A stretch of DNA of 64,000 bases from Bacteroidales bacterium (GTDB lineage Bacteria > Bacteroidota > Bacteroidia > Bacteroidales > FEN-979): assembly GCA_038212325.1 (NCBI GenBank), contig JBBQUQ010000001.1:8339-72338 (forward strand). The letters run 5' to 3'. The notes beneath the pieces are model-generated. The model had not been told where the DNA came from. It worked only from the letters and a program-made list of their open reading frames with translations, and did not search any database. The position numbers and the translations under genes are program-made. This document shows, piece after piece, positions 6,370-54,630 of the stretch. How positions within the stretch are numbered: position 1 is the first letter of the stretch; every line of letters begins with the position of its first letter.

Positions 6370-6398
6370 GGTGCTGATGTTATTGAGGCATTACAAAT

Positions 6399-7862: not shown

Positions 7863-7927
7863 AAACCCGGGAAGGTTGTTGAATTCTCTCACAAAGTTAA
7901 AATATTTCACTGCCCGCCTGTTTTCCG

Positions 7928-9868: not shown

Positions 9869-9928
9869 GATCAAATTGGTTTAATTTCAGGTTTTAAAAA
9901 TCGTTGGATTCATTCATTCCATATACGG

Positions 9929-11386
9929 TTAAAACCTGAAATAGATGAACGGACTGAATCCGGAGGAGGTGATGGTTGCCTCGCCAAGGATGAACAGTAA
10001 AATTGCGATCACAGCGCATGCGATCATCAGACCTTTTCCCGGGTTGAAATAGAGCTTCCCGATCCATGATTCCACCTTTTTGAACCCGCCCCAGAACGAG
10101 AATAAGACGGCGATCGCCATCATGGTCCAGAATTTCGGGTTCAGCCAAACATCGCTCTCTCCTCCCTGGAAGGTAAACAGCCGGCGGATGAAAAACCAGG
10201 CTTCATCGATGGTTGCCGACCGGAAAATCAGCCAGCCGATCATCAGCAGGAAAAAGGTGAGTGCAATAGATGGCACTTTGCCTGCTTTTTTCAGGTATTT
10301 GAGCAGGAAGAGCCTGTCGGCGATGATGAAAACCCCCATGTACGCGCCCCAGATGATGAAGGTCCAGGCAGCCCCATGCCAGAAACCACACAGTAGAAAA
10401 GTTATGGTGGTGGCAATGAGGTAGATCACCTTATCGGCACGAAGTCCCAGGTATCGCTCCCTGGGAAGCTTGCGCGAAGTGGCATAGGCCAGCGGGAGAA
10501 AAACATAGTCGCGGAACCACAGAGACAGGGTCATGTGCCACCGGCGCCAGAATTCGGTGATGCTTTGCGAAACATAGGGGGAGTTGAAATTTTCGGGCAG
10601 TCTGAATCCCAGCATCCGTGCAAGCCCGATGGCCATATCGGTGTAGCCGGAGAAGTCAAAATAGATCTGGAAGGTAAAGGCCACGGCTCCGATCCAGGCC
10701 ATGCTGGTTGACAATTCGGCGGAGGAGAGCTGAAATATCTCATTGACTGTAACACCCAGCACGTCAGCGATCAGTACTTTTTTCGACAGCCCGATGATGA
10801 AACGGAAAAAACCGGTCAGCCGGAAGTCGAGCGTCTCCTGCTCCGACCGGTCGGCGATCTGCGATGCGATTTGCCCGGGCCTCACAATCGGCCCGGATAA
10901 CAGTTGTGGAAACATGAAAATATACAGTGCGTAATCCTGCAATTTTTCAAAAACCGGATACTGCTTTTTATACACATCGAAGGTGTAGGCCAGTTTCTGA
11001 AAGGTAATGAAGGAGATCCCTACCGGCAGGGCAATCTTCGTCCATCCGGCAGGTTTTGATCCGAAAACACCGAGGAGCGTGTCAAACTGGTCGACAAAGA
11101 AATTCATATATTTAAAATAGAGGAGCAGCGCCAGGTTCATCAGCACAGAAAGCCAGAACAATATCCTGCGCGCCGAACCGGTTTTCAGGGTCATCCGGCG
11201 GATGATTAAAAAATCAATGACGACCGATCCCGCCACGATAAAAACGAATTTCGGAGCTCCCCAGGCGTAGAAGAGGAGGCTGGCAATAAGGAGAAAGCCG
11301 TTTTTGTAACTGCGGTCGATCAGGAAATAAACAATCAGGATGAACGGAAGGAAGTATAGCAAAAATAAGCTGCTGTTGAATATCAT
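9929..11386 (-). CDS. MBOAT family membrane-bound O-acyltransferase (AlgI/DltB/PatA-like)
   Basis: 485 aa and polytopic. Hallmark motifs are FWRRWHMTLSLWFRDYVFLPL and LLCGFWHGAAW (the MBOAT conserved His). Confidence 0.9.
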   Translation of the reverse strand: MIFNSSLFLLYFLPFILIVYFLIDRSYKNGFLLIASLLFYAWGAPKFVFIVAGSVVIDFLIIRRMTLKTGSARRILFWLSVLMNLALLLYFKYMNFFVDQFDTLLGVFGSKPAGWTKIALPVGISFITFQKLAYTFDVYKKQYPVFEKLQDYALYIFMFPQLLSGPIVRPGQIASQIADRSEQETLDFRLTGFFRFIIGLSKKVLIADVLGVTVNEIFQLSSAELSTSMAWIGAVAFTFQIYFDFSGYTDMAIGLARMLGFRLPENFNSPYVSQSITEFWRRWHMTLSLWFRDYVFLPLAYATSRKLPRERYLGLRADKVIYLIATTITFLLCGFWHGAAWTFIIWGAYMGVFIIADRLFLLKYLKKAGKVPSIALTFFLLMIGWLIFRSATIDEAWFFIRRLFTFQGGESDVWLNPKFWTMMAIAVLFSFWGGFKKVESWIGKLYFNPGKGLMIACAVIAILLFILGEATITSSGFSPFIYFRF

Positions 11387-11389
11387 AGG

Positions 11390-12688
11390 CTACCTGAATT
11401 TTGACAAGCGTTTCAACTCATTATTGTACAAATATATCGCATCGTTCCTTACCATGGCATCCAGCGGAAGATTCTGCTCCTTCGCCTTTTTTTTCATCTC
11501 CTCCATCCATCCCGGGCTCATCCTGAAGTTCTCCTCGATCATCCTGATCCTCGTCTTTCCGGGATAATATTGCTCGTAAGCCCTGTCGACAAATCCATAA
11601 CCGATGTTGCCATAACCGGCATTGGTCTGCATCAGAATCACCACCTCCTGCCGGTCGAGTGCGCTGTCGAGGTTGATCCGGGCAGTATTTGTCGGCCTGG
11701 TATTCTGATCGGGATAAACCTCCTTGTCGTAATACCACATATCCTCCCGCAGGAACGTGTTTTTGATGATCCCGTTAAAATGCCAATACCAGTAATAGCT
11801 GTCGCTGACAAACAGTACGGCGGGTTTCGGGGCATCGCCGGCATAGGTGTGATGAAAAACAGGGTAGGTCATCTGCGGCACCGGGTTCTTCCAAACCAGG
11901 TTCAGCACGCGGTCCATGTCGTCGTCCTCCTTGCGGGCTTCAGGTTCAAGCATCAGGCTGTCGAGCACCATGTGGGGAAGTTCCCGGTTCAGGCTCTTTT
12001 CGAGATACCTGATGAGGGAATCGGCGCCTAAGTAAGCCCCGTAGCAACTCCAGTGCGCCCCGCTGAATGGGTAGAGGTTGTGACGGGAAGTGTCTTTCAG
12101 TTGCACAAGCCATGTGTTAAAATCGATCAGGTTGACCCCCGCATCTTTGAGCTTGCGCGAATAATAATCGTTATTTGTGGGTCCCCGCCCTCCTTCGAGA
12201 AAGCGGTCGGGAATGCTTTCGGGATAGTAAAAGCCTTTCCCAGGTGCCAGGATCACCAGGAGATGTATCTTCTTTTTTGTCCAGAAGTAATCCTGGAGAT
12301 ACTTGATGCGGGAAACCTTGTCGTCGAGAAACCTGGTGCCTGCGAAATCCCTGCCCAGGCATGCATCAATATGGGAATCGATTTGCATGATACCGTTCTT
12401 TCCAACAACAATGCGGGCCGCATGCGGAAGAGAAAACAACGTGTAATCGACCTGGTTGAATATCCTTGTGAATGCATTGTGGAACCCGACTGTCAGGTCG
12501 AGGTGCGGGGTAATTTTAGCCTGGTACTCGCCATTCCTGAGGTCTGCCATGCTGAATTCCGGCCGCTGCCGTTCTTCAAAATAACCTTCAAGCGGCCTGT
12601 CGGGAAAGATGGTAAGCACCTTTTGCACCGTAGGAAAAGCGAGCACCACCATGATCAAAAAAAAGATTGTGCTTTTTATCCACATCAT
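11390..12688 (-). CDS. AlgX/AlgJ-like (SGNH-like) putative O-acyltransferase partner, paralog of 6399-7862
   Basis: Its stop is 3 nt upstream of the MBOAT start. Motifs SGAHWSCYG and FVSDSYY align with YGMHWSIYG and VIADSYY of the paralog. The track start at 12742 is a TTG lying inside a -7 box. ATG at 12688 gives MMWIKSTIFFLIMVVLAF (TM anchor). Confidence 0.6.
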   Translation of the reverse strand: MMWIKSTIFFLIMVVLAFPTVQKVLTIFPDRPLEGYFEERQRPEFSMADLRNGEYQAKITPHLDLTVGFHNAFTRIFNQVDYTLFSLPHAARIVVGKNGIMQIDSHIDACLGRDFAGTRFLDDKVSRIKYLQDYFWTKKKIHLLVILAPGKGFYYPESIPDRFLEGGRGPTNNDYYSRKLKDAGVNLIDFNTWLVQLKDTSRHNLYPFSGAHWSCYGAYLGADSLIRYLEKSLNRELPHMVLDSLMLEPEARKEDDDMDRVLNLVWKNPVPQMTYPVFHHTYAGDAPKPAVLFVSDSYYWYWHFNGIIKNTFLREDMWYYDKEVYPDQNTRPTNTARINLDSALDRQEVVILMQTNAGYGNIGYGFVDRAYEQYYPGKTRIRMIEENFRMSPGWMEEMKKKAKEQNLPLDAMVRNDAIYLYNNELKRLSKFR

Positions 12689-12739
12689 CAGGCAACCATT
12701 AGTCAATCGCAGTAAAAAGGAGGATTTGCAGAACGCCGG

Positions 12740-12747
12740 CAAAGGTA
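12740..12747 (-). promoter_or_regulatory. candidate Bacteroidota -7 box (TACCTTTG on the minus strand)
   Basis: Matches TAnnTTTG. It lies 52 nt upstream of the ATG at 12688, in the 77-nt gap after the GT-C gene. Confidence 0.3.
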
Positions 12748-21272: not shown

Positions 21273-22352
21273 ATGACGACAGCAAACCTTATATATAAAT
21301 CACTACAATCTGAATTCCTGACCATCGAAGAGGGCAAATTCCTTTACGAAACCCTTCCGCTGGCCGACTTGATGCTGATAGGCAATGAACTGCGAAAAAA
21401 ACTACATCCTGAAGGCACAGTTTCCTGGATCATCGACCGCAATGTAAACATCACCAATGTCTGCATCTCCGGGTGCAAATTCTGTAATTTCTACCGCACC
21501 TCAGGCAGCAGAGATGCTTACATCACCTCAATTCCTGAATACTGCAACAAGATCGAGGAGATGAAGCGGTTGGGAGGCAGTCAGTTACTGCTCCAGGGCG
21601 GGTTGCATCCCAAATTGAGCCTCGATTTTTACGAAAATCTGTTTGCCGACCTCAAAAGCAGGTATCCCGAGGTGCGGCTGCATGCCCTTGGGCCCCCTGA
21701 AATTGCATGGCTGGCGAAAAAGGAGAACCTCTCATTTAAAACTGTCCTGGAACGGCTTGTCGCCGCAGGTCTCGACAGTTTGCCAGGGGCCGGAGCGGAA
21801 ATACTGGCCAACAGGGTGCGAAAAGTACTATCCCCGGCCAAATGTTCGAAGCAGTCATGGCTCGACGTAATGCGGGCAGCCCATGAACTGAACCTGACCA
21901 CCTCGGCAACCATGATGTTCGGGCATATCGAAACCATCGAAGAGCGGTTTGAACACCTGTGCGCGCTTCGTGAACTTCAATCGCAGAAACCTGATGGAAA
22001 CAAGGGTTTCCTGTCGTTCATCCCCTGGCCTTTCCAGGATGACAGGACCGTGCTGAAGGAAAAATCAGGGGTCGTTAACAAGGTTACGCCCGAAGAATAT
22101 ATCCGCATGATCGCCATCAGCCGGATTATGCTGCCCAACATCCCGAACATCCAGGCTTCGTGGCTCACGGTTGGGAAAGATACTGCCCAGCTGTGCCTCC
22201 ATGCCGGCGCCAATGATTTTGGCAGCATCATGATCGAGGAAAATGTTGTGAGTGTTGCCGGCGCCAACCACAAATTTGACGCGGCAGGCATCCAGAAGGC
22301 TATCAGGGATGCAGGATTCGAGCCACGGCTGAGGGACCAGGACTTTAACTGA
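21273..22352 (+). CDS. radical SAM enzyme of the MqnC/MqnE/CofH family (futalosine-pathway menaquinone biosynthesis type)
   Basis: 359 aa. It has the CX3CX2C cluster CISGCKFC within IDRNVNITNVCISGCKFCNFYR, and the overall layout is typical of MqnC/MqnE/CofH. I cannot separate the subfamilies by eye. Confidence 0.75.
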   Translation: MTTANLIYKSLQSEFLTIEEGKFLYETLPLADLMLIGNELRKKLHPEGTVSWIIDRNVNITNVCISGCKFCNFYRTSGSRDAYITSIPEYCNKIEEMKRLGGSQLLLQGGLHPKLSLDFYENLFADLKSRYPEVRLHALGPPEIAWLAKKENLSFKTVLERLVAAGLDSLPGAGAEILANRVRKVLSPAKCSKQSWLDVMRAAHELNLTTSATMMFGHIETIEERFEHLCALRELQSQKPDGNKGFLSFIPWPFQDDRTVLKEKSGVVNKVTPEEYIRMIAISRIMLPNIPNIQASWLTVGKDTAQLCLHAGANDFGSIMIEENVVSVAGANHKFDAAGIQKAIRDAGFEPRLRDQDFN

Positions 22353-22496: not shown

Positions 22497-22504
22497 TACT
22501 TTTG
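22497..22504 (+). promoter_or_regulatory. candidate -7 box TACTTTTG with a TTTG -33-like element at 22472-22475
   Basis: Matches TAnnTTTG, 62 nt upstream of the ATG at 22567. Confidence 0.3.
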
Positions 22505-22566: not shown

Positions 22567-25500
22567 ATGAAAAAAAATTACTTATTATCTCTTCCCATAA
22601 TTGCGGTTTTATTGCTGGGACAATTGTTATTTTTCCAGCATACAGCCTATTCCCAAGCCACTGAACCAGTTTCTATCGGGACTGAGAGCCATGTGGTAAA
22701 TTTTGATAACGCCCTGCATCAAAAACCAGTGCAGCATCACTTAACCAGAGCCCTCACTCCGCAGGAAATGCATGTTCTGGGCGAGTTAACCCCTGCAGAA
22801 AGAACCTTGATCGAGGGATACGTTGAACCACTCGCTGTAGGTGTTGTGCGTGATCTGAAAGAACCCATCCGGTTTTCCCTGAGCGAAATTAACATACCAG
22901 CCCAGGGCGAAGTATCGGTTTCCGGTGGCAGACTTGCAAGGATCAACGAAGATACCATCGTCTGGACGACCTGTATCAAGTCGGCAAAGGCAGATGAACT
23001 CCGGATCTTTTTCTCAGAAGGCAATTTTCCGGATGGCGTAAAAGTAAATTTCTTCAGCAAAGATGGCTATGCATTTAACCAGTTTGACCTGAGGGGAATG
23101 CTGAAAGAGGATGGTTTTTACACTACCACAACCTTTGCCGATTATGTTTTTATGGAAGTAGTGATCCCGGTCAGGTTGATCACGGAGAATTTGTATTTTG
23201 TCGTACCAAAGGTGGTCCACTCCGACAGCCGATACATGCCTGACGCTCCTCTTGACTGCTATCAGGATGTAAATTGTTCTTATGCAAATGGTTATGGCGA
23301 TATTGGTTCCTTGAAAGCGAGTACAGCCAAACTATCGTTCGTCGTTAGCGGCGTAAACTATATTTGTTCGGGCGGCCTGCTGAATGATGCAAGAGGTATT
23401 GATTGGCAGCCATTTTTATTAACAGCCAACCATTGTTTCAGCTCACAGGCTTCGGCAACCTCGCTCGAAGCCCGTTTCGACCTTTTCTCCACCTCATGCA
23501 ATGGGGGAACCAACCCAAATGTAGTCCTGGTCAACGGGTCGAGCCTTATTGCAACCAATAGTGGAAGTGATTTTACAATGGTGCTTCTTAACCAATTTCC
23601 TTCAGGATACAGAGCCTTTTTGGGATGGACAACGGGTGCCGTGGCAGACAATGAAACGATGCATTCGGTAAACCATCCTGCCGGGATGCCACAGAAATAT
23701 GTACGGGTGGCGAACGATTACTCTCCGGCATACAACTGCACAGGTTTCAGCACCTCAAATTTTCACTATACCAATGTGCTCGGCGGTCAAACCACCGGAG
23801 GCAGCTCAGGCGGGCTGATCGTCAATTCCGGTGGAGGGGTGGTCGGTCAGTTATACGGCACTTGCCATGGGACAACCTGGGGCGAATGTAATTATGGATC
23901 CTTTAATAACATGTGGGGCCGGTTCAATGTATCGTATAACAACAACAACTTACAATACTGGCTGAATGGTGGCGGGTCAAGCGTTTACATGTCAACCTCC
24001 ACTTCATCGCTCTCCTACGCGACACTCAACGTGGGTTCTTACCAGGATTTGACCGTAACCGTTTATAATGACGGATATATTCCATACTATTTGAACCTCG
24101 AAGCAGGAAATGCATACATTTCCGGTGCCGATGCGAGCCAGTTTTCCATCATAGGCACTTCGTACCTTTATCTGTCGCCGAGCACATCGGGCACTTTCAC
24201 CGTGCGCTTTGCACCAACCTCTTCCGGTGCAAAATCGGCGTCATTGAATATACCCCACAACGCAAATAACATTGTCAGCCCGAAAGTGATCTCACTTTCC
24301 GGCGCCGCAGAACCATGTTCAAATATCATTTCACTCGGAACCGGCGGGACGGCCAATGCAAAGACTTATTCTAAAAGCGGATCAGGCATATGGTATACAA
24401 CTTTTTCACCGTGCGGCAGTTGGTCTTGTCCGGGCAATGAGCAAATTTACAGTTTTACAGCTCCGTACACGGGTTACTACAGCATTGCAGTCTCTGCATC
24501 AAATTCGCACTGGATCGACTATATGTGGAAAACAAGCTGCGACGGAGGTGTATGGACCTGCATAGATGATGCTTATTATCCAGGCACCTATGGTTCCATT
24601 TACTGGACTGCCGGCAGCACCTATTATATCCTGGCGGATGCTGAATCGACCGCTCTTACCACGCAAACGTTCTACGTCTTCCTGAACCCTTGCCTGAACA
24701 CTGTTTCCATCGGCGGAACCGGACCTGATTACAGCCAGACCTATAACGGGGGCGGAACCGGGGGATGGAATTCAAATATTGCAGGCCCCTGCAGTTGGCT
24801 CTGTCCCGGAGTTGAGAGTGTGTACAGTTTTGTAGCACCTTATACCGGATATTATAGTCTGAATGTTTCCAGCACGACAGAATACTATGTTGACTACGCA
24901 TGGAGTACCTCGTGTGGATCAACCGGATGGAACTGTATCCAGGATGTTTTGAGCCCCGGCAATTACGGCAACATGTTCTGGACGGCCGGTACAACCTACT
25001 ACATCCTGCTTGATGATGAAAATGGAGTTGTAGGGCCGCAAACATTTTATATAAACGAACCAAACCCCTGTCAGGGCATCATCTCCCTGGCATGCAACCA
25101 GTCGGTTGCATTTGCAGGGGGCGGACCGGGTGTGTGGGGTTACAACCCATGTTATTCCTCGCCCGGCTTTGAACAAATCTACAGCTTCGTAGCACCCACA
25201 ACGGGCCAGTACAGCATCGAGGTCAATGCCGCAGGAAGTTGGGTTGATTACCTATGGAAAGCAGGATCCTGCTCTGCCGGCGACTGGAATTGCATATCTT
25301 ACGTTCAAAGCCCCGGACAATATGGCTCCATGGAATGGACTGCCGGCACCACCTATTATATCATGCTGGATGATGAAGACACATATGCCGGAATACATAG
25401 TTTCAAGATCATTTGTCCTGAGCTGTGCCATACTTGCCCGGTTTATGATTATCAGATATCTCCCAATGAAACCTGGCAGCTTTCCTCCTCATCCATTGAC

Positions 25501-26568
25501 AGTTACGGATGTAAAAACTACAAGTTTTATGCTTACACCGGGTATTCATATACGTTCAAGACCGGTTGCGGCGACGGGGCTACTGCAAATTATGACAGTT
25601 ACCTGCAAGTGCTTGATGCAAGCTGTGCAGAGGTTGCCTACAATGACGACGGTTGCGACGGCACATTGTCAAAGATCGAATGGACCCCGGTCGCCAGTGG
25701 ATATTACACGCTTAAAGTGCTTGGATATTCAAGCAATTTCGGCTCCTACACCCTTGCATACAATATGTGTTATACGGCACCGGCAATGCCTGACCTGATC
25801 TCGGGCCCGGCAGTGATTGGTGAAGGTACCGAACAGTCCTACAGCATTCCTGAGGTATACGGAGCAACATCCTACACCTGGTCATTCAGCGGTACGGGGA
25901 TTATTACCGGAAGCGGAACCAGCATCATCCTGTCGGCAACAAGCGACGGAGTGTTGAGTGTTACAGCGAACAACCTCTGCGGAAGCAGTTCTCCTTACCA
26001 GTTAGGCATAACCGTCATCCCGCAATTCGTTTACCCTGCCAATATTGTCATAACACCGGGGTCGACCGTATGCTATGCTGCCACGCAAACCATCACGGTG
26101 GCCGGCGGTGGATCCTACTACTATGTTCTGAATGGCGGCAGCGCCGAATTTGTTGCCGGGCAAAATATCTTTTTCATGCCCGGGTTAACGGTATACAGCG
26201 GAGGTCATCTCCTTGGCCGGATCACAACCACCGATACCTATTGTACGCCGGTTGTTGCAAAATCTGTCGAGAATGGCATTGCCGGAACTGCCGGGAATGA
26301 GATGCCTGCAATAATCGCAGGGGATTCATTCTTCAAAGTTTACCCAAATCCAACGTCCGGTGCCTTCACGCTTGAATTATCCGCCGAACCCGAAGGAGAA
26401 CTGGTGAAGGTGCAATGTTACAACCTTTTAGGGGCTTTGATCATTGAGAAGGAGTTCGAAACAGGAAAGCGCCATGAATTCACACTGGCCAACCAGGCAC
26501 CCGGGCTCTACGTATTAAAGGTTACGCAAAATAACCGGGCTGGCATGCAGAAGATTGTCAGGCAATAG
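22567..26568 (+). CDS. T9SS-secreted trypsin-like (S1, lysyl/glutamyl-endopeptidase-like) serine peptidase with three tandem Cys-rich repeats, a PPC-like domain and a sorting domain
   Basis: 1333 aa with a signal peptide. Catalytic-triad motifs: LLTANHCF (His), SDFTMVLL (Asp), TTGGSSGGLIV (Ser). Three ~125-aa repeats span aa 584-950, followed by a PPC-like domain. The T9SS tail is KVYPNPTSGAFTLEL...GLYVLKV. Confidence 0.85.
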   Translation: MKKNYLLSLPIIAVLLLGQLLFFQHTAYSQATEPVSIGTESHVVNFDNALHQKPVQHHLTRALTPQEMHVLGELTPAERTLIEGYVEPLAVGVVRDLKEPIRFSLSEINIPAQGEVSVSGGRLARINEDTIVWTTCIKSAKADELRIFFSEGNFPDGVKVNFFSKDGYAFNQFDLRGMLKEDGFYTTTTFADYVFMEVVIPVRLITENLYFVVPKVVHSDSRYMPDAPLDCYQDVNCSYANGYGDIGSLKASTAKLSFVVSGVNYICSGGLLNDARGIDWQPFLLTANHCFSSQASATSLEARFDLFSTSCNGGTNPNVVLVNGSSLIATNSGSDFTMVLLNQFPSGYRAFLGWTTGAVADNETMHSVNHPAGMPQKYVRVANDYSPAYNCTGFSTSNFHYTNVLGGQTTGGSSGGLIVNSGGGVVGQLYGTCHGTTWGECNYGSFNNMWGRFNVSYNNNNLQYWLNGGGSSVYMSTSTSSLSYATLNVGSYQDLTVTVYNDGYIPYYLNLEAGNAYISGADASQFSIIGTSYLYLSPSTSGTFTVRFAPTSSGAKSASLNIPHNANNIVSPKVISLSGAAEPCSNIISLGTGGTANAKTYSKSGSGIWYTTFSPCGSWSCPGNEQIYSFTAPYTGYYSIAVSASNSHWIDYMWKTSCDGGVWTCIDDAYYPGTYGSIYWTAGSTYYILADAESTALTTQTFYVFLNPCLNTVSIGGTGPDYSQTYNGGGTGGWNSNIAGPCSWLCPGVESVYSFVAPYTGYYSLNVSSTTEYYVDYAWSTSCGSTGWNCIQDVLSPGNYGNMFWTAGTTYYILLDDENGVVGPQTFYINEPNPCQGIISLACNQSVAFAGGGPGVWGYNPCYSSPGFEQIYSFVAPTTGQYSIEVNAAGSWVDYLWKAGSCSAGDWNCISYVQSPGQYGSMEWTAGTTYYIMLDDEDTYAGIHSFKIICPELCHTCPVYDYQISPNETWQLSSSSIDSYGCKNYKFYAYTGYSYTFKTGCGDGATANYDSYLQVLDASCAEVAYNDDGCDGTLSKIEWTPVASGYYTLKVLGYSSNFGSYTLAYNMCYTAPAMPDLISGPAVIGEGTEQSYSIPEVYGATSYTWSFSGTGIITGSGTSIILSATSDGVLSVTANNLCGSSSPYQLGITVIPQFVYPANIVITPGSTVCYAATQTITVAGGGSYYYVLNGGSAEFVAGQNIFFMPGLTVYSGGHLLGRITTTDTYCTPVVAKSVENGIAGTAGNEMPAIIAGDSFFKVYPNPTSGAFTLELSAEPEGELVKVQCYNLLGALIIEKEFETGKRHEFTLANQAPGLYVLKVTQNNRAGMQKIVRQ

Positions 26569-26607
26569 AGCAAGTTCCCGGTATCGGGTTAAATATTTTA
26601 CCGGCAG

Positions 26608-26648
26608 AAAAGCCATTTACGGGGTCACCCCCTGTAAATGGCTTTTTT
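26608..26648 (+). terminator. rho-independent terminator
   Basis: The hairpin is aaagccatttacgggg / ccctgtaaatggcttt with a short loop, followed by a T-run (gcTTTTTTga), 40 nt after the stop at 26568. Confidence 0.7.
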
Positions 26649-26715
26649 GAACCCCTGATCATGGCTTAACTTTTAAGCCAAAATATCTGTTTCTTAACCT
26701 GTAAAACCTTCAGCT

Positions 26716-29700
26716 ATGAATAAAAAAATAACTCACCTGAGCATTCTGCTGCCAATCATCATGATGTTGATCTTATTCACATCCATATCACAATCTTTCG
26801 CACAAAATGAACAGTCGGCAGGAACTCCATTGGTGGTTCATCCTGCCAGGGCAGAAACTGTTTCTGAAATTATGGACCGGGCAAAAAGAAATCCCGAACC
26901 GCAGATGCACGTGCGGCCTGAAATGGAAAATCCCGATCGCTCGAACCTGCCTCAAAATCCTGAATCCAGGCCTGCCGCAGGTTTTCCAGAATATGACCAG
27001 TCTGCCAATGCTTATCGGGGCCAGGCTTCTGACCAGCCTCAGACAATTGGCCTTTCCTTCAGCGGATTTACCAGTTCATCCGCATTCGGGCCTTTTCCCC
27101 CTGACGATATGGGAGCCATCGGCCCCACTCAGTATATCGTGGCAGTTAACGGAATCATCAGGTCATTTAATTCAACCACCGGGGTGGCTGATGGGGTTTT
27201 GAATGCAACCCCCGAAGCCTTCTTCGCCTCGGTCATGACCCCGATCGGAGGCGCAATAACATCCAATTTTACTTCGGATCCGCGGGTTCGGTACGACCGG
27301 CTTTCGGGCAAATGGATCCTGATCATTATTGACGTGCCAAATAATGGTGCTGCTGCAAACAGGTTGTTAATCGCCGTAAGCAATACATCAACCATCACTG
27401 GCGGTACTGTGTGGACATTCACCCAGTTTACCAGTGAGGCAAATACGTTCTTTGACTACCCTACCATCGGGATCGATGTAAACGCCGTTTATATCGGGGG
27501 AAATATGTTTTCGCTGGCCGGGAATTTTGTTCACACAAACGGCTATGTGATTAACCGGCTGAACCTGGAATCAGGCGGCGCATATACGGTGTATCCTTTC
27601 CTCAACCTGGCACTGGGAGCCGGCGCTGGTCCGTATACGCCGCAAGGCGTTGATAATTTTGACATTTCGGCCACCCAGGGATATTTTATCGGCGTGGATA
27701 ACGCTACCTATGGCACCCTCATGTTGCGCAGGGTGAGTACGCCGGCTGGCGTGCCAACTATTTCATCAAATATTCCCGTCACAGTTAATTCCACCTCTGG
27801 TCCTCATATCGTTCCCCATTCAGGCAATACCGGGGGCACCAATGGGAACCTCGACGCCATTGATGACAGGCTTTACGCCGCCATGATCAGGGGCGGACAT
27901 TTGTGGACCGCGCAAACTATTTACGTGAATGCATCGGGCACCACCACTTCGGCAAATCGCAACGGAGTGCGCTGGTATGATCTGATGAACCTGGCCACTA
28001 CACCGGCAGTAAACCAGTCAGGAACTGTTTTCGACCCTGCAGCCTCCAACCCCAGGTGGTACTTCTTCCCGTCGGTTATGGTCTCCGGACAAGGTCACGC
28101 TGCATTCGGTTTAACTGCCGGTGGTAACGCCGACCATGCCAATGCCGCCACAACCGGCCGTTTATCCGTTGATCCGGCAGGGACCACGCAGTCCATCGCC
28201 TTGACCACCGCAAGCGCCACAGCCTATAATCCTTCCGGCGACCCCGGAGGTGCCGGCGGAAGGAGATGGGGAGATTACTCTTATGTTTCGCTTGATCCGC
28301 TTGATGATATGACGATGTGGATGGTAAACCAATATTGTTCAGGGGCCAATGTTTATGGCTGCAATGTCACCAAACTGATCGCACCGCCGCCTGCTACCCC
28401 CGCAACCTGCAGTCCCGCTGTGGCATCAGCCGGACAGTCTTCGGTCAATATTGTGGTAACCGGCAATTCGGTCAGCGGCAGCGGATTTTATGATCCGGGC
28501 TCCAATCTTCCGGCGCCGGCATTGGCTTTTCATCATATTACAGCCACCGTTACAGGAGGTGTTGTGGTTAACAGCGTAACCTATACCAATCCTACACATA
28601 TTACGTTGAATATCAATACAAATGCTGCCACTGGCGGTTTGCAGACAGTTACGGTTTTCAATCCCGACGGACAATCCGTTGCCGGCATCGGGATCCTGAG
28701 GATCTGCCCGCTGATCACGGTTATAAATCCAACACCTGCGACCGGTACGGCAGGAACTGTTTTCAGCAAGACTTTTACCTCTTCCGGAGGAGCGCCGGCA
28801 GTCACCTATAGTACTGCAAGCGTGTTACCAAATGGCCTGGCACTGGCCGCCAATGGTGTGTTGAGCGGAGTTCCAGCCCAAACAGGCACCTTCCCTGTCG
28901 TTGTCGTTGCCACCGATGTTAATGGTTGTACCGGTACAGGTTCTCCTTATAACCTGGTGATAAGCTGTCCGGTTGTGAATCCTTCAATTTTCGCAAACGG
29001 ACCCACCGCATTTTGTCCGGGAGGATCGGTGCAATTATCTTCCAGCGGTGGCAATGCCTTGCAATTCAATGGCACCTCAAGTTATGTGACCATTCCTTCG
29101 GGCATCAATTCGGCCTTCAGCAGCAGCCGGGTTACCGTTGAAGGCTGGTTTTACCAGACCGCTGCAACCGTTGCCACCCCGGCCCTTGTCACAGAAGCGT
29201 ACCTCGGCGACGGAAAAGTGACATTTTCGATGTATTTAAGCGGACAGCAGATCATCGCCGGATTCTTTTCCGGTGCCTGGATCACCGCCGGCAGCACTTC
29301 AAACCTGCCGCTGAACGTATGGACCCATGTTGCAGCCACTTATGATCAAACGGCCATCAGGATTTATATCAACGGCGTAGCTGCGGGCTCTTTTGCAACT
29401 GCCTCTGTGTTGCCAGCCGGCACCGAAGAATGGAGAATAGGCAGGAGATGGGATAATGCCGAATATTTCCAAGGCAGAATGGATGAAATACGTATTTGGA
29501 ATATAGCCAGGTCGCAGGCCCAGATCCAGGCAGGCATGAGCATGGTCCTTCCGCCAAATACAAACGGTTTGACTGCCTGCTACAGGCTCGATGAAGGAGC
29601 AGGAACATCGGCCGCAGACCTTACCGGACATGGATATAATGGCACCATCGTGAGCAGTCCGACATGGGTAATTCCATCAACAGCACCACTGGCAGGTTAT

Positions 29701-30636
29701 TCCGGCTACCTGTGGTCGAACGGCGCTGCCACTTCCGGCATCAATGTAAATGCCACAGGAAGTTACACCGTTACCGTCACTGATCTTTATGGCTGTGCTG
29801 GTGCCAGTGCTGCAACTGCAGTCACCTTGAAGGGATTAACCGGTGCCGCCGGGGTGATTTCGGGTCCGGCCGTGACTGCCCAGGGACATACGGGACTTGT
29901 TTATACGGTTCCGGCCATTCCAAATGCGACCGGTTATGTGTGGGCTTTACCATCAGGGGCGACCCCTGCATCAGGGTCCAATACAAACAGCATCACAGTT
30001 GATTTTTCGGCAGCGGCTGTTTCAGGAAACATAAGTGTTTATGGGACGAATGATTGTGGAAACGGCGCGGTATCTCCGCAATTTGCCATCACCGTTATTG
30101 TCTCAACCTACAATACAGGGAATACCGTAGTGAACTCCGGAAATATACTATGTTATAACGCCATCCAGACCATTTTTGTTCCGGGGAACGGCAACACCTT
30201 TGCAGTGCTGAGTGGCGGAAGCGCCACCATGATCGCCGGTCAGAATATATTCTATCAGCCGGGGACAATGGCTGCATCCGGTGGATATCTGCACGGGTAC
30301 ATTACCACGAACAACCAGTATTGCGGCGGGATGGCACCCTCCATGCTTACAGTGGTTGCAGGGATTGAAACACTTCCGGTGGGTTCAGTTACCCCATTCT
30401 TAAAAATATACCCGAATCCCACCTCCGGAACCTTTACAATTGAACTGACCGGCGATACAGGATCACAGGATGCGAGGGTTGAAATTATGAATATGAACGG
30501 TGTCAAAGTGCTTGATGAACAGCTGAACGGTGACAGGAAATACAACTTATCCATCACAGCCATGCCACCGGGCCTCTATTTTATACATGTTGTTGCAGGA
30601 AACCTTGCTGAAACGGTTAAATTGGTAAAATTGTAA
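26716..30636 (+). CDS. T9SS-secreted multidomain protein with Ig-like and LamG (concanavalin-like) domains
   Basis: 1306 aa with a signal peptide. Putative-Ig domain: TFTSSGGAPAVTYS...LPNGLALAANGVLSGVP. LamG_3-like domain: LQFNGTSSYVTIP...WTHVAATYD...GRMDEIRIWNIARSQAQIQ. T9SS tail: KIYPNPTSGTFTIEL...GLYFIHV. The N-terminal ~550 aa are unrecognised. Confidence 0.85.
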   Translation: MNKKITHLSILLPIIMMLILFTSISQSFAQNEQSAGTPLVVHPARAETVSEIMDRAKRNPEPQMHVRPEMENPDRSNLPQNPESRPAAGFPEYDQSANAYRGQASDQPQTIGLSFSGFTSSSAFGPFPPDDMGAIGPTQYIVAVNGIIRSFNSTTGVADGVLNATPEAFFASVMTPIGGAITSNFTSDPRVRYDRLSGKWILIIIDVPNNGAAANRLLIAVSNTSTITGGTVWTFTQFTSEANTFFDYPTIGIDVNAVYIGGNMFSLAGNFVHTNGYVINRLNLESGGAYTVYPFLNLALGAGAGPYTPQGVDNFDISATQGYFIGVDNATYGTLMLRRVSTPAGVPTISSNIPVTVNSTSGPHIVPHSGNTGGTNGNLDAIDDRLYAAMIRGGHLWTAQTIYVNASGTTTSANRNGVRWYDLMNLATTPAVNQSGTVFDPAASNPRWYFFPSVMVSGQGHAAFGLTAGGNADHANAATTGRLSVDPAGTTQSIALTTASATAYNPSGDPGGAGGRRWGDYSYVSLDPLDDMTMWMVNQYCSGANVYGCNVTKLIAPPPATPATCSPAVASAGQSSVNIVVTGNSVSGSGFYDPGSNLPAPALAFHHITATVTGGVVVNSVTYTNPTHITLNINTNAATGGLQTVTVFNPDGQSVAGIGILRICPLITVINPTPATGTAGTVFSKTFTSSGGAPAVTYSTASVLPNGLALAANGVLSGVPAQTGTFPVVVVATDVNGCTGTGSPYNLVISCPVVNPSIFANGPTAFCPGGSVQLSSSGGNALQFNGTSSYVTIPSGINSAFSSSRVTVEGWFYQTAATVATPALVTEAYLGDGKVTFSMYLSGQQIIAGFFSGAWITAGSTSNLPLNVWTHVAATYDQTAIRIYINGVAAGSFATASVLPAGTEEWRIGRRWDNAEYFQGRMDEIRIWNIARSQAQIQAGMSMVLPPNTNGLTACYRLDEGAGTSAADLTGHGYNGTIVSSPTWVIPSTAPLAGYSGYLWSNGAATSGINVNATGSYTVTVTDLYGCAGASAATAVTLKGLTGAAGVISGPAVTAQGHTGLVYTVPAIPNATGYVWALPSGATPASGSNTNSITVDFSAAAVSGNISVYGTNDCGNGAVSPQFAITVIVSTYNTGNTVVNSGNILCYNAIQTIFVPGNGNTFAVLSGGSATMIAGQNIFYQPGTMAASGGYLHGYITTNNQYCGGMAPSMLTVVAGIETLPVGSVTPFLKIYPNPTSGTFTIELTGDTGSQDARVEIMNMNGVKVLDEQLNGDRKYNLSITAMPPGLYFIHVVAGNLAETVKLVKL

Positions 30637-30678
30637 CAGGAAACCTTGCACCCCGTCGGTGAAAGAATCGTGGCAACA

Positions 30679-31770
30679 TTACTTCATTTTGATCAATTTG
30701 AGTATTTCAGTTGAACCATCTGCCGTAACCATAACAAAATAAAGTCCATCTGAAAAATCAACCATGCTGAATTCGTGTTGTTTCTCTCCATGCAGCCTTT
30801 CATTCATCACCATTACCCCATCCATGGTATAAACCTTTACCTCAACATTTTCAAGGTCATGATCGCCCTTAAGTAACAGTGTGAAATTACCATTTGTGGG
30901 ATTGGGGTATATCAGCATGGAAGGTTTTTCAACTTCTCCTTCACTGATAAGTGTCGACTTTAAACCATTGTTCAACGATCTATCTTTGAGACAGCGAGTG
31001 GATAGTCCTGTCACTTTATAAAACTGGCCATTGGTTGAGGCGGCGATTGAATACGATGCTCCACGATAATATACATCAGTATTGGGATTATAACCTGGCG
31101 ACACAGTCCAGAAGATAGCATCCTTGCCCTTATAATAGAAATTTCCGTTACTCCAGCGTTCGCCGGCAGGTAAAGCCGTAAACCCCACGGAATTGGTGGC
31201 TGCAGTATTTGGAAACAGATAGTGAGTATATCCTTTTTCCTTAATCATTCCTCCGGCAACCCCCACCCCACCCAAATAAGTCACCAGTGCTCCCCATTCA
31301 CCATTGGTCGGTATATGCCATCCGCCCGGACAAATACCCTGAACATCGCCTGTAGGTATAGGATTCCAATTCGTTGTATTATTTGCTCCATTAAGATATT
31401 GAACCATTTCGCTCCATTGGTAGAGTCCACCGTAAACTTTACATAACGAATCTAAATCGTCGTAACAGTATTTTTCAATGATTCCGTTATCAGTTTGATT
31501 TTGATTACTGTTGATTTTTGTACCAACAGATAAATTATTTTTAAACCAGCATTGTGAACCTATTTCTACTGTGTAAAGTATATCTCCGCCATAAACTACT
31601 ATTGAAATTCCATTGCATGCACCACCCGGCAATGTGTCAGGTATGGCGATAAACCGTTTATGAAGAATTGTGCTTGGTGGTTTGATTTGAATATCAATTC
31701 CAATATATGTTTGTGCTGATGCAGTGAACACAGACAACCCGAATAACAATAATAAACTAAAATTTTTCAT
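30679..31770 (-). CDS. T9SS-secreted protein with a Fibrobacter succinogenes major paralogous (Fib_succ_major) domain
   Basis: Motifs YGGLYQWSEM and CPGGWHIPTNGEW. T9SS tail: IYPNPTNGNFTLLL...GLYFVMV. ATG at 31770 gives the signal peptide MKNFSLLLLFGLSVFTASAQ. The track start at 31869 would lie upstream of the -7 box. Confidence 0.8.
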   Translation of the reverse strand: MKNFSLLLLFGLSVFTASAQTYIGIDIQIKPPSTILHKRFIAIPDTLPGGACNGISIVVYGGDILYTVEIGSQCWFKNNLSVGTKINSNQNQTDNGIIEKYCYDDLDSLCKVYGGLYQWSEMVQYLNGANNTTNWNPIPTGDVQGICPGGWHIPTNGEWGALVTYLGGVGVAGGMIKEKGYTHYLFPNTAATNSVGFTALPAGERWSNGNFYYKGKDAIFWTVSPGYNPNTDVYYRGASYSIAASTNGQFYKVTGLSTRCLKDRSLNNGLKSTLISEGEVEKPSMLIYPNPTNGNFTLLLKGDHDLENVEVKVYTMDGVMVMNERLHGEKQHEFSMVDFSDGLYFVMVTADGSTEILKLIKMK

Positions 31771-31805
31771 TTTCTCGTTTTTTAAATTACCGGAATTCAA
31801 CTGCG

Positions 31806-31813
31806 CAAAGGTA
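31806..31813 (-). promoter_or_regulatory. candidate -7 box (TACCTTTG on the minus strand)
   Basis: Matches TAnnTTTG, 36 nt upstream of the ATG at 31770. Confidence 0.35.
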
Positions 31814-32082
31814 AATACCCTTTTAATCACAGGTATTACACAAATTTGAAATAATGTTGTATGTTTCACACGTTTTCCAGAGAAATGGGTTTTCTCTTTG
31901 CAATCCCGTAATTGCCACTACGCAAAAGCTTCCTTATCTCCTCCATGATTTTAATATGGTCAATCCGGACTCATGGAGTGTTTTTTCATCGGGGTACAAC
32001 GACAACAGTAACCTGGTAGCTCCGCACCCACTGATTGAAAATCTCACGGTTCATATTAATGGGCATTGTTCAGGAAGTAATT

Positions 32083-32110
32083 TAAAAACCACCCTTTACG
32101 AGTGGTGGTT
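32083..32110 (-). terminator. rho-independent terminator of the 32118-33980 gene
   Basis: The minus-strand RNA has the stem aaccacc/ggtggtt with a 10-nt loop, followed by TTTTT, 8 nt after the stop. Confidence 0.5.
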
Positions 32111-32117
32111 ACAGCAA

Positions 32118-33980
32118 TTAATATTTCTTAATGATTTTAGCGTTAGATGACCTGTCTCCCATCGTCACATGAATAAAATAAATTCCGGGTTGCATGTTAT
32201 TGATGGAAAATTCTTTTGACTTATTACCTGTCATGTCCTCTTCAATGACCTTTGCTCCAAGCATGCTGTAAATCTGCACCACCGGGCGAGATAATTGTTC
32301 TGAGGCTAACAATTCGAGCGTAAATTTTCCTTCTGTGGGGTTGGGATAAACTCTGAAGAGGTTCGACTTATCGCCTATAATCGGTTTATTCTCATTTACA
32401 GTGGTAGTCAACATCGAAAGAGGTTGCATCCCGCAGGGGGATTCGCTGATATATCCATGTAAGTAACCTCCGCTCAGAACAGTGGTTCCCGGCATATAGT
32501 GGATCTCTTGTCCCGCAATCATACTAACATTACCACCAGGCTGTACGATAAAGTAGGTTCCATTTCCCGCCACGGTAATGGTTTGCATGGCATTATACAC
32601 TCTGGTATCTGCAACAATGATATTGGTCAGGTAAAGATTGGCAGGAACCACAGGATTGGTACTATTGACAGTTATTGCAACGGTAGTCAATGCCCCGGTA
32701 GTTGTAAGCGCTCTGCCGTCAAGTATAACTCCGGTATTCAGCCCCAGAGCACCGTTGTTACAAATTATTGTTCCGCAGAAAACTGAATAATTATTTATGC
32801 TCACTGCACCTTCAATTTTCCAAAACACATTTCTTGCCATCGCTCCGTTTGTCAAAATGACTTTTGAATAGGTACTTGTTGAAAGTGCACCGTTTATCTT
32901 GATAACAAATACTGCATCGGGGTTACCTTGCGCATCGAGGTAAAGACTATCTGTTAATACTGTAGCAGCATCAAGGAGATACGTATGCGGAGTCAGATTC
33001 AGGTTGTTTCCAAACTGTGCAGGATATAACAGGTTGATATCATAAGGCAGGAGATTGAGATAATTATATACATTGAGTAAATCGGCTGCGCAGGTTGCTG
33101 TGGAGATATCCGGAATGGGATGTATGGTACCGGTTACGAGTAAAGGATCAAAGCCTGTGGTTAAACCTACATTCGTTCCAATATCCCCAACAACATGCGT
33201 GATGCCGCTGTTTGAAACAGCTCCGTCAGCAGAAAATAATGCATAGCATGCTGTTGAAGCAAGGGCAGGAGCATCGGGTCCGGTGAGCACAGGACTTCCG
33301 CAACCGACCGGGGTAAATGCCTTCACTCCGTGAACAGTAACTGCTCCTGCAATAGAAAGGGCTCTTCCATTAAGTCTGCTGCCTGAGAATATTTCTATTG
33401 CAGCATTGTGGGCGATGATAGTTCCCTTCATCTTGGTACCAGCGGCCAGACTCACTAAACCTTCTACTTTCCAGTATACATTACATGCTTGCGCACCATT
33501 AAGCAAAAGTATCCGGGAAGAGGGGCCGGAGGAGAATGCACCCTGGATTTGGAAAATAAATACAGCATTTGCATTTCCCTGCCCGTCTAAATATAGGTCC
33601 AGGTTCAGCGATGCAGCCGCGGAAATTGAATAAACACCTTCGTTAAGTGTGTCGCCATTACCTAAAAGAGGCGCAGGAAAGAACATAGGTGTTGTCCCAT
33701 TCAGCAGGTTATATGCAGTGAGCAAATCAGCGGAAGCTGATGCACTCACGCCATCACCATCGTGCATCTGCCCGTTCACATTGCCAAACCCGGTGCTGGA
33801 ACCTGAGTTTGTGCCTACATTTCCTGTGATGTGCGAAATTCCGGTGTTGGTTACAGCTCCCGCAGAAGAGAAAAGCACAAAACTGCCCACAGTGCCCAAA
33901 TTGGGAGCCTGGGCAAAATTCATAATCGGGAATAATAACAAAGTACCGGATGTCAAAATATACAGAATTTTTGCTTTCAT
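32118..33980 (-). CDS. T9SS-secreted protein with two tandem ice-binding-like (DUF3494) beta-helix domains
   Basis: 620 aa with a signal peptide. The DUF3494-type openings LGTVGSFVLFSSAGAVTNTGISHITGNVGTNSGSSTGF and ACYALFSADGAVSNSGITHVVGDIGTNVGLTTGF each precede ...NGRALS/DGRALT. T9SS tail: RVYPNPTEGKFTLEL...GIYFIHV. Confidence 0.8.
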   Translation of the reverse strand: MKAKILYILTSGTLLLFPIMNFAQAPNLGTVGSFVLFSSAGAVTNTGISHITGNVGTNSGSSTGFGNVNGQMHDGDGVSASASADLLTAYNLLNGTTPMFFPAPLLGNGDTLNEGVYSISAAASLNLDLYLDGQGNANAVFIFQIQGAFSSGPSSRILLLNGAQACNVYWKVEGLVSLAAGTKMKGTIIAHNAAIEIFSGSRLNGRALSIAGAVTVHGVKAFTPVGCGSPVLTGPDAPALASTACYALFSADGAVSNSGITHVVGDIGTNVGLTTGFDPLLVTGTIHPIPDISTATCAADLLNVYNYLNLLPYDINLLYPAQFGNNLNLTPHTYLLDAATVLTDSLYLDAQGNPDAVFVIKINGALSTSTYSKVILTNGAMARNVFWKIEGAVSINNYSVFCGTIICNNGALGLNTGVILDGRALTTTGALTTVAITVNSTNPVVPANLYLTNIIVADTRVYNAMQTITVAGNGTYFIVQPGGNVSMIAGQEIHYMPGTTVLSGGYLHGYISESPCGMQPLSMLTTTVNENKPIIGDKSNLFRVYPNPTEGKFTLELLASEQLSRPVVQIYSMLGAKVIEEDMTGNKSKEFSINNMQPGIYFIHVTMGDRSSNAKIIKKY

Positions 33981-34470: not shown

Positions 34471-34506
34471 AGAAAAAACCACTTACAAAAAACGTTGTAA
34501 GTGGTT
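34471..34506 (-). terminator. rho-independent terminator downstream of the tRNA
   Basis: A 12-bp perfect stem (34477-34488 pairs with 34495-34506, aaccacttacaa/ttgtaagtggtt) is followed on the minus strand by TTTTTTCT. Confidence 0.7.
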
Positions 34507-34516
34507 GATTTTGCTG

Positions 34517-34590
34517 TGGGCCCAACAGGACTTGAACCTGTGGCCAGCTGATTATGAGTCAGCTGCTCTAACCGTCTGAGCTATGGGCCC
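34517..34590 (-). tRNA. tRNA with CAT anticodon (elongator type: tRNA-Met or lysidine-dependent tRNA-Ile2)
   Basis: The 74-nt minus-strand sequence is GGGCCCATAGCTCAGACGGTTAGAGCAGCTGACTCATAATCAGCTGGCCACAGGTTCAAGTCCTGTTGGGCCCA. It folds as a cloverleaf with a 7-bp acceptor stem, anticodon loop CTCATAA and T-loop GGTTCAAGTCC. CCA is not encoded. It lacks the initiator features (1:72 mismatch, GGG/CCC anticodon stem). Confidence 0.9.
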
Positions 34591-35842: not shown

Positions 35843-36004
35843 AAATGTAAAATGGTAAAATGGTAAAATGGTAAAATAGTGCTTAGTTTACCATTTTACC
35901 ATTTTGCCATTTTGCCATTTTGCCATTTTGCCATTTTACCATTTTGCCATTTTACCATTTTTGATTTGCTTTTCCGAATTTTACCATTTTTAATTTCACC
36001 ATTT
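35843..36004. repeat. composite 8-bp tandem array: ~4.7 units aaaatggt (35843-35880), then 9 inverted units [ag]ccatttt (35890-35961) and a degenerate tail to 36004
   Basis: Read directly. It fills the whole queA-ispD intergenic space, and the ispD TTG start lies in the degenerate tail. Confidence 0.9.
35849..35913 (+). terminator. long hairpin formed by the inverted 8-mer arrays (putative queA terminator)
   Basis: 35849-35875 pairs with 35887-35913, giving 27 contiguous pairs with one G-U and an 11-nt loop. It starts 8 nt after the queA stop and is followed by T-rich repeat units. Confidence 0.5.
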
Positions 36005-54627: not shown

Positions 54628-54630
54628 AAT
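54603..54630. repeat. 8-bp tandem array, 3.5 units (aaatagtg aaatggcg aaatggtg aaat)
   Basis: Read directly. It contains the lysS stop and abuts the stop of the convergent 54630-56666 gene. Confidence 0.85.

Follow-up and report, generated by a model that had tools for sequence, protein, structure and literature searches.

Four type A cargo genes of the type IX secretion system between mqnC and tRNA-Met in a freshwater Bacteroidales genome, and a pre-tail domain shared by three of them

Bacteroidota genomes encode tens to hundreds of type IX secretion system (T9SS) cargo genes, and the modular design of the products, in which a functional head is joined to a sorting tail, is textbook knowledge. 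We analysed a window of 64,000 nucleotides (the whole stretch of DNA considered here) from the genome of a Bacteroidales bacterium, described as an uncultured freshwater (lake) Bacteroidota, and in it a block of four consecutive genes, P1 to P4, whose products end in a type A T9SS C-terminal domain (CTD). The established route of such cargo involves Sec, the translocon, PorV, PorU and either release or attachment to lipopolysaccharide (LPS) (PMC10202324, PMC12618676). A described relative of one of the products, P4, is IBPv of Flavobacteriaceae strain 3519-10, a secreted, hyperactive two-domain antifreeze protein with a thermal hysteresis of 2.2 C at 53 uM; its final 88 residues are disordered and invisible in the crystal structure (PMC5673226). 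Our analysis indicates that the block is probably a lineage-specific cluster of four independently transcribed type A cargo genes, which occupies the interval from mqnC to tRNA-Met, where synteny breaks. As a gene cluster, this lineage-specific grouping is ordinary and matters little.

The four cargo genes and their site

The features of the block and its flanks are the following.

21273-22352, + strand: mqnC, left flank, encoding cyclic dehypoxanthinyl futalosine synthase (TIGR03699, 437 bits, cut-off 428.1)
22567-26568, + strand: P1, 1333 aa, T9SS type A cargo with an S1 peptidase head
26605-26649, + strand: terminator-like hairpin between P1 and P2, 20-nt arms followed by a T run (inverted repeat I11)
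26716-30636, + strand: P2, 1306 aa, T9SS type A cargo, LamG protein
30679-31770, - strand: P3, 363 aa from the ATG at 31770, FISUMP domain and type A CTD; the longest open reading frame (ORF) extends to a GTG at 31869
32088-32106, - strand: terminator-like hairpin directly past the P4 stop codon, 7-bp stem with 4 GC pairs, T run
32118-33980, - strand: P4, 620 aa, type A cargo with tandem DUF3494 domains
34477-34590, - strand: right flank, tRNA-Met with its hairpin
34477-34506, - strand: 12-bp terminator-like hairpin on the tRNA-Met side (hairpin scan)
34516-34590, - strand: tRNA-Met(CAT) (ARAGORN; Rfam RF00005, 75 bits)

The original prediction, made from the letters of this DNA, had described four consecutive cargo genes without intervening genes, two on each strand and converging at 30636/30679. 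The ORF list of the window agrees with this description: positions 22567-33980 hold exactly four long ORFs, P1 and P2 on the + strand and P3 and P4 on the - strand, with a gap of 42 bp between the convergent P2 and P3, and no further ORF of at least 100 aa was found in the gaps outside the cargo genes from mqnC to the tRNA. The flanks, named earlier as a menaquinone radical-SAM gene and a tRNA, proved to be mqnC, whose product has the Radical_SAM and CofH_C domains, and tRNA-Met(CAT), which was the sole match of the Rfam scan and whose 3' end points toward the cargo cluster. Housekeeping genes surround the cluster, on the left side the alr/murF fusion together with pdxA and pepA, on the right side queA together with ispD, and mqnC is the final gene of a conserved alr/murF-pdxA-pepA-mqnC block. 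At the point of convergence, a 19-nt stretch in the final P2 codons (TTGTTGCAGGAAACCTTGC) recurs at 89% identity 41 nt downstream, past the stop (window 30590-30649), with the second copy inside the 42-bp gap; this repeat pair may be the scar of a small duplication.

All four products carry the same type of sorting domain, as had been claimed. TIGR04183 gave 39.9, 48.0, 42.7 and 48.7 bits for P1 to P4 (cut-off 23) and PF18962 gave 47.8, 55.6, 45.9 and 52.1 bits (cut-off 27), all above the cut-offs, and the sorting domain ends no more than 3 residues from the stop codon in each protein. The tail motifs quoted in the original prediction are seen in the alignment of the tails, with one deviation, an L in place of K/R ahead of IYPNPT in P3. 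By their domain matches the heads are unrelated (S1 peptidase, LamG, Fib_succ and tandem DUF3494), also as described before. Judged by eye, the N-termini of all four show K-rich n-regions, hydrophobic cores and AQ, SQ or AQA ends, for example MKKNYLLSLPIIAVLLLGQLLFFQHTAYSQ and MKAKILYILTSGTLLLFPIMNFAQA. A hidden Markov model (HMM) built from the four tails found no further strong match in the other 52 kb of the window, and in 2.25 Mb of loci from related Bacteroidota it picked out 15 ORFs with such a tail; this model is narrow, as it misses the gene at 1945-6369, which passes TIGR04183. Given the rarity of matches to the four-tail model in both sets, the clustering exceeds what is expected by chance.

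The signals between the genes were also considered. Hairpin I11, with arms 90% complementary and a 5-nt loop, points to separate transcription units for P1 and P2. A hairpin follows each of P1 and P4, and this and the convergent arrangement of the genes would fit four separate units. Scans for sigma-70 promoters and terminators gave counts at or below the shuffled expectation, and individual hairpins alone were used from them. A TAnnTTTG motif of the Bacteroidota type is located at 22497, ahead of P1, and another 43 nt upstream of the ATG at 31770. Because of this motif, a typical-looking signal peptide and an independent gene call that uses the same ATG on an identical public contig (L081; Logan, SRR19962012), the start of P3 is likelier to be at 31770 than at the GTG.

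To place the site among its relatives, MqnC neighbourhoods were compared in 160 related loci (80 genomes and 80 metagenome contigs). The closest relative is 85% identical in MqnC, and the metagenome scan yielded nothing closer than 78%. The alr/murF-pdxA-pepA-mqnC synteny is kept to ~69% MqnC identity, with the left side retained in L001-L004 and L082-L085, and it ends directly past mqnC, where the genes differ in every relative: kdtA and a C69 peptidase gene in L001, aspartate kinase/lysA in L002, and in L085 a FISUMP-CTD gene of 33% identity. Orthologues of P1 to P4 were found next to MqnC in none of the 160 loci. On these comparisons the block is accessory at about genus or family depth, a limit imposed by the nearest MqnC being only 85% identical, and neither a gene order conserved across the family nor a tail failing TIGR04183 was found. 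In L003 (80% MqnC identity) the place past mqnC is taken by a different ORF (3375-7412, more than 1346 aa, running off the contig end) that contains domain X, the pre-tail domain treated in the next section. This ORF encodes BNR/YCF48-like and Kre9-like domains and two tandem X copies. A secreted-protein gene at the same junction gives a hint of a recurrent landing site.

Composition was compared with the flanks as well, and a deviation was found. The G+C content at third codon positions (GC3) is 0.521, 0.52, 0.347 and 0.413 in P1 to P4 against 0.611 +/- 0.040 (z-scores -2.25, -2.3, -6.6 and -5.0). These are the lowest GC3 values of the 38 window genes, and the synonymous-codon likelihood is lowest in the four as well; the other CTD-type genes of the window (1945-6369, PorZ and 54630-56666, see below) have normal GC3. 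The contrast in GC3 between the two halves of the cluster favours separate arrivals at a rearrangement-prone junction over a single mobile island. The genes would have been joined by separate insertions or rearrangements, not built locally by swapping heads onto one tail, and P3 and P4, compositionally the most foreign, would probably be the latest arrivals.

Several points weigh against this reading. Loss of synteny is common at a depth of 85% MqnC identity and is weak evidence of recent gain. Low GC3 could stem from low expression or from amino-acid or repeat content, and P1 and P2 deviate by merely ~2.3 standard deviations. If the genome as a whole were rich in cargo genes, a run of them would be less remarkable. 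The Sec signal peptides of the four proteins were assigned by inspection alone.

The position of the block had been regarded earlier as that of a classic accessory region. Its absence from the site in relatives upholds this view, while the tRNA position gives no sign of an integrative island. We consider it very unlikely that a tRNA-targeted integrative island was inserted at the 3' end of tRNA-Met with the cargo genes as passengers. Like tRNA-associated genomic islands, the block lies next to a tRNA gene on its 3' side, is atypical in composition, most strongly at the tRNA-proximal P4/P3 end, and is missing from the site in relatives. Unlike them, it lacks genes for an integrase, a recombinase, a transposase or conjugation, as the interval from mqnC to the tRNA is filled by the four cargo ORFs, whose Pfam and NCBIfam matches are confined to head and secretion domains; no direct repeat of 14 nt or more flanks the block, and the 24-mer at the 3' end of the tRNA is single-copy in the window even with up to 3 mismatches allowed. 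The halves also differ in composition (GC3 0.52 in P1/P2 against 0.35-0.41 in P3/P4), which argues against one imported unit, and the orthologues of the individual genes are unlinked elsewhere.

Domain X and the shared C-terminal cassette

P1, P2 and P4 share, ahead of the tail, the ~75-aa domain X, with 47-49% identity among the three copies. P1 and P2 have PKD_6 in common too, giving a PKD_6-X-CTD module of 264 aa at their C-termini (38% identity, E 1e-40), and X plus CTD of P4 is 41-45% identical to the same region of P1 and P2. The shared cassette exceeds the tail described in the original prediction. With an E-value limit of 1e-3, an exhaustive HMM search of 1.84 billion representatives detected X in at least 1,865 clusters. 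In 149 of the best 150 members a type A CTD comes after X; the median length of the gap is 24 aa, and the end of X lies at a median of 104 residues from the C-terminus. The heads found on 63 X members represent 45 Pfam families, and no Pfam model covers X in these 63 members. From these profile matches, P1, P2 and P4 are placed in a large subclass of type A cargo that bears X. The domain is thus very widespread, unlabelled in Pfam and below the NCBIfam threshold.

The sole library model touching X is NF045639 GCX_COOH ('3-coathanger stack'). It gave 18.1, 10.6 and 18.0 bits for X of P1, P2 and P4, under the curated cut-off of 26, and matched 15 of 32 X-bearing tails at E <= 0.01 (best E 2.4e-5). 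The match spans ~35 of the ~75 residues of X, the same stretch in all three window copies. Since the scores are sub-threshold and the coverage is partial, X would be at best a divergent, unlabelled relative of GCX_COOH. In the AlphaFold2 (AF2) model of the P4 tail, the predicted local distance difference test (pLDDT) score is above 90 for X and CTD and below 50 for the linker between them; X is modelled as a compact stack of nine short beta-strands, compatible with a three-rung stack. No sequence relative of X was found in the PDB, and a Foldseek search with the X plus CTD model matched the CTD alone. The CTD model of P4, the only one of the four on which the seven-stranded immunoglobulin (Ig)-like fold was checked, matched 8glk_D, the NucA CTD in the translocon complex (TM-score 0.86, root-mean-square deviation 2.0 A), and the other top matches were the CTDs of mirolase (8qb1) and RgpB (5ag8).

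Within individual protein families, X seems to have been repeatedly acquired and lost, for example in several separate clades of the tandem ice-binding proteins. Among the 120 closest homologues of P4, X is present in 20, and about 100 have a short, IBPv-like architecture without it. On a neighbour-joining tree of the ice-binding heads the presence of X needs ~6 changes compared with ~19 if it were random, a count that is indicative only, as the sequences are 72-79% identical and the tree is without support values. After removal of the CTD, X would become the C-terminal, membrane-proximal end of mature P1, P2 and P4. We regard as unlikely a reading in which X, instead of being a passive spacer, functions within the signal for export or anchoring of a separate type A subclass. 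If true, X could set the choice between release and surface fixation, or form a membrane-proximal stalk after cleavage by PorU. The near-constant distance of X from the CTD offers a handle on what decides between release and surface attachment.

The shared cassette bears directly on the model of the original prediction, in which heads were recombined onto an export cassette copied between neighbouring genes. The modularity part of that model holds only in an old and family-wide sense (the same tandem ice-binding head occurs with X in 20/120 and without X in 100/120 homologues), and nothing shows shuffling at this locus. The common 264-aa module of P1 and P2, and the X plus CTD that P4 shares with both, could be read in favour of local copying. 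For the tail of P4, those of X-bearing P4 orthologues (41-44%) are no nearer than those of the cluster neighbours (~42%), whereas other ice-binding pairs at equal head identity have tails that are on average 51% identical, and the P4 head groups apart from other X-bearing ice-binding proteins on the neighbour-joining tree. These values are compatible with, and no proof of, a separate acquisition of X-CTD in the P4 lineage. However, the four cluster tails are only 37-42% identical among themselves, which makes any exchange between neighbours ancient, and the tails of P2 (54-70%) and P1 (71%) are close to those of their own orthologues, suggesting that head and tail were inherited together. Head and tail showed no significant difference in GC3 in any of the four genes, P3 does not have X, and the presence of X-CTD in the clusters found, across many lineages, means that sharing it does not imply a local origin. 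Judging from these alignments there was no recent exchange of tails between the neighbours, and we hold local shuffling at this site to be highly improbable.

The four heads

P4 is clearly an IBPv-type two-domain ice-binding (antifreeze) protein by sequence. A putative signal peptide is followed by the ice-binding domains A (aa 24-228) and B (aa 229-441), by X (aa 444-516, nt 32433-32651), a disordered linker and the CTD (aa 544-617), and P4 matches Ice_binding/DUF3494 PF11999 in two stretches with 261.6 bits. Over both DUF3494 domains (418 aa, aa 24-441) the head is 60.5% identical to IBPv (PDB 5UYT) without gaps. P4 shares with IBPv a T9SS tail of the YPNP type and, by inspection, a signal peptide; the cysteines of the domain-A disulfide are kept (C166/C227), and C245 of P4 corresponds to C244 of IBPv; the counterpart of C443 is absent at the aligned position. 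P4 has two additional cysteines, C402 and C407, and a further one where X ends. The tail of IBPv begins ~19 residues past domain B, while P4 interposes the ~75-aa X and the disordered linker. Against NF045625 IBP_CFB the score was 96.3 bits with a cut-off of 400, and P4 is therefore not an equivalog of that family. More than 3,700 homologues were found, mostly annotated as ice-binding family proteins from metagenome-assembled genomes (MAGs) of Bacteroidota.

The orthologues of P4 have a conserved neighbourhood of MlaEFD, OmpA, DUF6600 and CsbD genes, which is absent at this cluster. In several unrelated MAGs (L162, L163, L164 and the contigs with P0186), related tandem ice-binding genes were observed next to genes for MlaE/ABC/MlaD, OmpA-family proteins, DUF6600, CsbD and an AI-2E transporter, and L162 has a second ice-binding gene, with PKD_6. 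This neighbourhood may be a conserved locus of cold or envelope stress. We are thus dealing with an IBPv-type antifreeze gene in a freshwater lineage whose context is unlike that of its orthologues, and the new context fits the horizontal spread of ice-binding genes.

P2 begins with a putative signal peptide, followed by a conserved beta-propeller plus Ig-like module (~aa 110-665), a LamG domain (aa 785-938, 106.6 bits), PKD_6 (aa 1045-1120), X (aa 1128-1204, nt 30097-30327), a linker and the CTD (aa 1231-1305). Its first ~650 aa (26716-28710, residues 1-665) gave no Pfam or NCBIfam match. More than 1,600 secreted proteins, which vary in their C-terminal parts, contain this head at 50-67% identity, and motifs such as RRWGDYSY and GPTQY are invariant in it; this propeller module of ~650 aa is without annotation. 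In the AF2 model of aa 1-700 (pLDDT 79.9, predicted TM-score 0.83), which is all-beta, a propeller precedes an Ig-like domain. Foldseek returned weak propeller matches only (sialidase, GH43 and paramyxovirus attachment proteins, E ~1e-5), so that P2 is called no more than probably glycan-binding or glycan-acting. No function was assigned to the head itself, as the matches are generic propellers with TM-scores of 0.3-0.5. Full-length orthologues of P2 (71-74% identity) are found in three contexts unrelated to the site of the cluster.

P1 is predicted to be a lysyl-endopeptidase-like protease. The N-terminal part comprises a putative signal peptide, a pro-region, the S1 peptidase domain (aa 230-435) and a choice-of-anchor D domain (aa 476-568), and the remainder four PPC-like repeats (~aa 586-1068), PKD_6 (aa 1072-1145), X (aa 1150-1226, nt 26014-26244), a linker and the CTD (aa 1258-1333). 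The peptidase scored 25.8 bits with Pfam Trypsin_2, under the cut-off of 27.6, and residues 230-435 matched the lysyl endopeptidase of PDB 9omd with E 5.3e-13. The identity to 9omd is low; a triad of His289 (TANHC), Asp335 (SDFTMVLL) and Ser414 (GGSSGG) aligns to its catalytic positions. Beyond the part resembling 9omd, P1 adds the choice-of-anchor D domain, the PPC-like repeats, PKD_6, X and the T9SS tail. The gene contains three internal 93-nt repeats. A P1-like fragment found elsewhere is followed by a convergent, unrelated gene.

P3 has a putative signal peptide, a FISUMP/Fib_succ_major domain and a type A CTD. The FISUMP domain scored 102.8 bits with PF09603 (cut-off 33.9) and 105 bits with TIGR02145 (cut-off 41.65). 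Related FISUMP heads carry X in other proteins.

The heads would therewith represent four unrelated extracellular activities, a predicted protease, a probable glycan binder, a FISUMP protein and a predicted ice binder. A module held together by joint selection, such as a toolkit for the cold season or for ice surfaces whose products act together outside the cell, would find favour in the export route common to all four, the homology of P4 to a hyperactive antifreeze protein, the nearest relatives being MAGs whose isolate names (ELA, Loclat and similar) we take to be lake sampling sites, and the FISUMP-CTD gene that L085 also has directly past mqnC, but it is rendered most improbable by the convergent strands and separate terminator-like hairpins, by the orthologues of P1, P2 and P4 never being adjacent to one another in the contexts compared, by the missing MlaEFD, OmpA, DUF6600 and CsbD neighbourhood of P4 and by the lack of a regulator within the block.

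Secretion context and comparison with known systems

Besides the cluster, the window contains a component of the secretion apparatus and further genes of CTD type.

49989-52304, + strand: PorZ, T9SS attachment-complex component (NF052228, 638.3 bits, cut-off 260)

The PorZ protein, a full-length T9SS anionic-LPS delivery protein encoded 16 kb from the cargo cluster, matches PorZ_N_b_propeller with E 1.1e-40. Its presence in the window shows that the genome itself codes for machinery of secretion and attachment. Following the established route, the cargo would be exported by Sec across the inner membrane and fold in the periplasm, the CTD would be recognised by the SprA/Sov translocon and the PorV shuttle, and the PorU sortase would cut in the disordered linker, after which the proteins would be released to the medium or attached to anionic LPS with the aid of PorZ.

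A fifth type A cargo gene is located at 1945-6369 (- strand, 1474 aa, TIGR04183 32.3 bits). It adjoins genes for AlgX-like SGNH, MBOAT and AlgX-like proteins (window 1945-12742, - strand), and this block looks like a polysaccharide O-acetylation set from its domain content. The gene at 54630-56666 (- strand) encodes a Porphyromonas-type peptidylarginine deiminase-like or agmatine deiminase-like protein with CBM_56 and a C-terminal FlgD_ig domain of weak resemblance to the PorU tail; its product is probably a further T9SS substrate with a divergent CTD. Between queA and ispD (35843-35961) we observed an array of 8-nt units, (AAATGGTA) x4.5 followed by the near-complement (TTTGCCAT) x9.4, which together form a long, perfect-looking hairpin (-45.7 kcal/mol, z = -6.8 compared with shuffles). 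The array could be a terminator or a slippage-prone repeat.

Returning to the likely lineage-specific grouping of separately transcribed cargo genes, its most useful content is incidental: a relocated IBPv-type gene, a common and unlabelled domain X, and a conserved propeller head without annotation. Ice-binding proteins with T9SS tails are of a kind characterised previously. Compared with the type A cargo of the T9SS studied as models (RgpB of P. gingivalis, NucA and FspA of F. johnsoniae), P1 to P4 are the same in kind; they differ in their heads, and three of the four add the domain X before the CTD.

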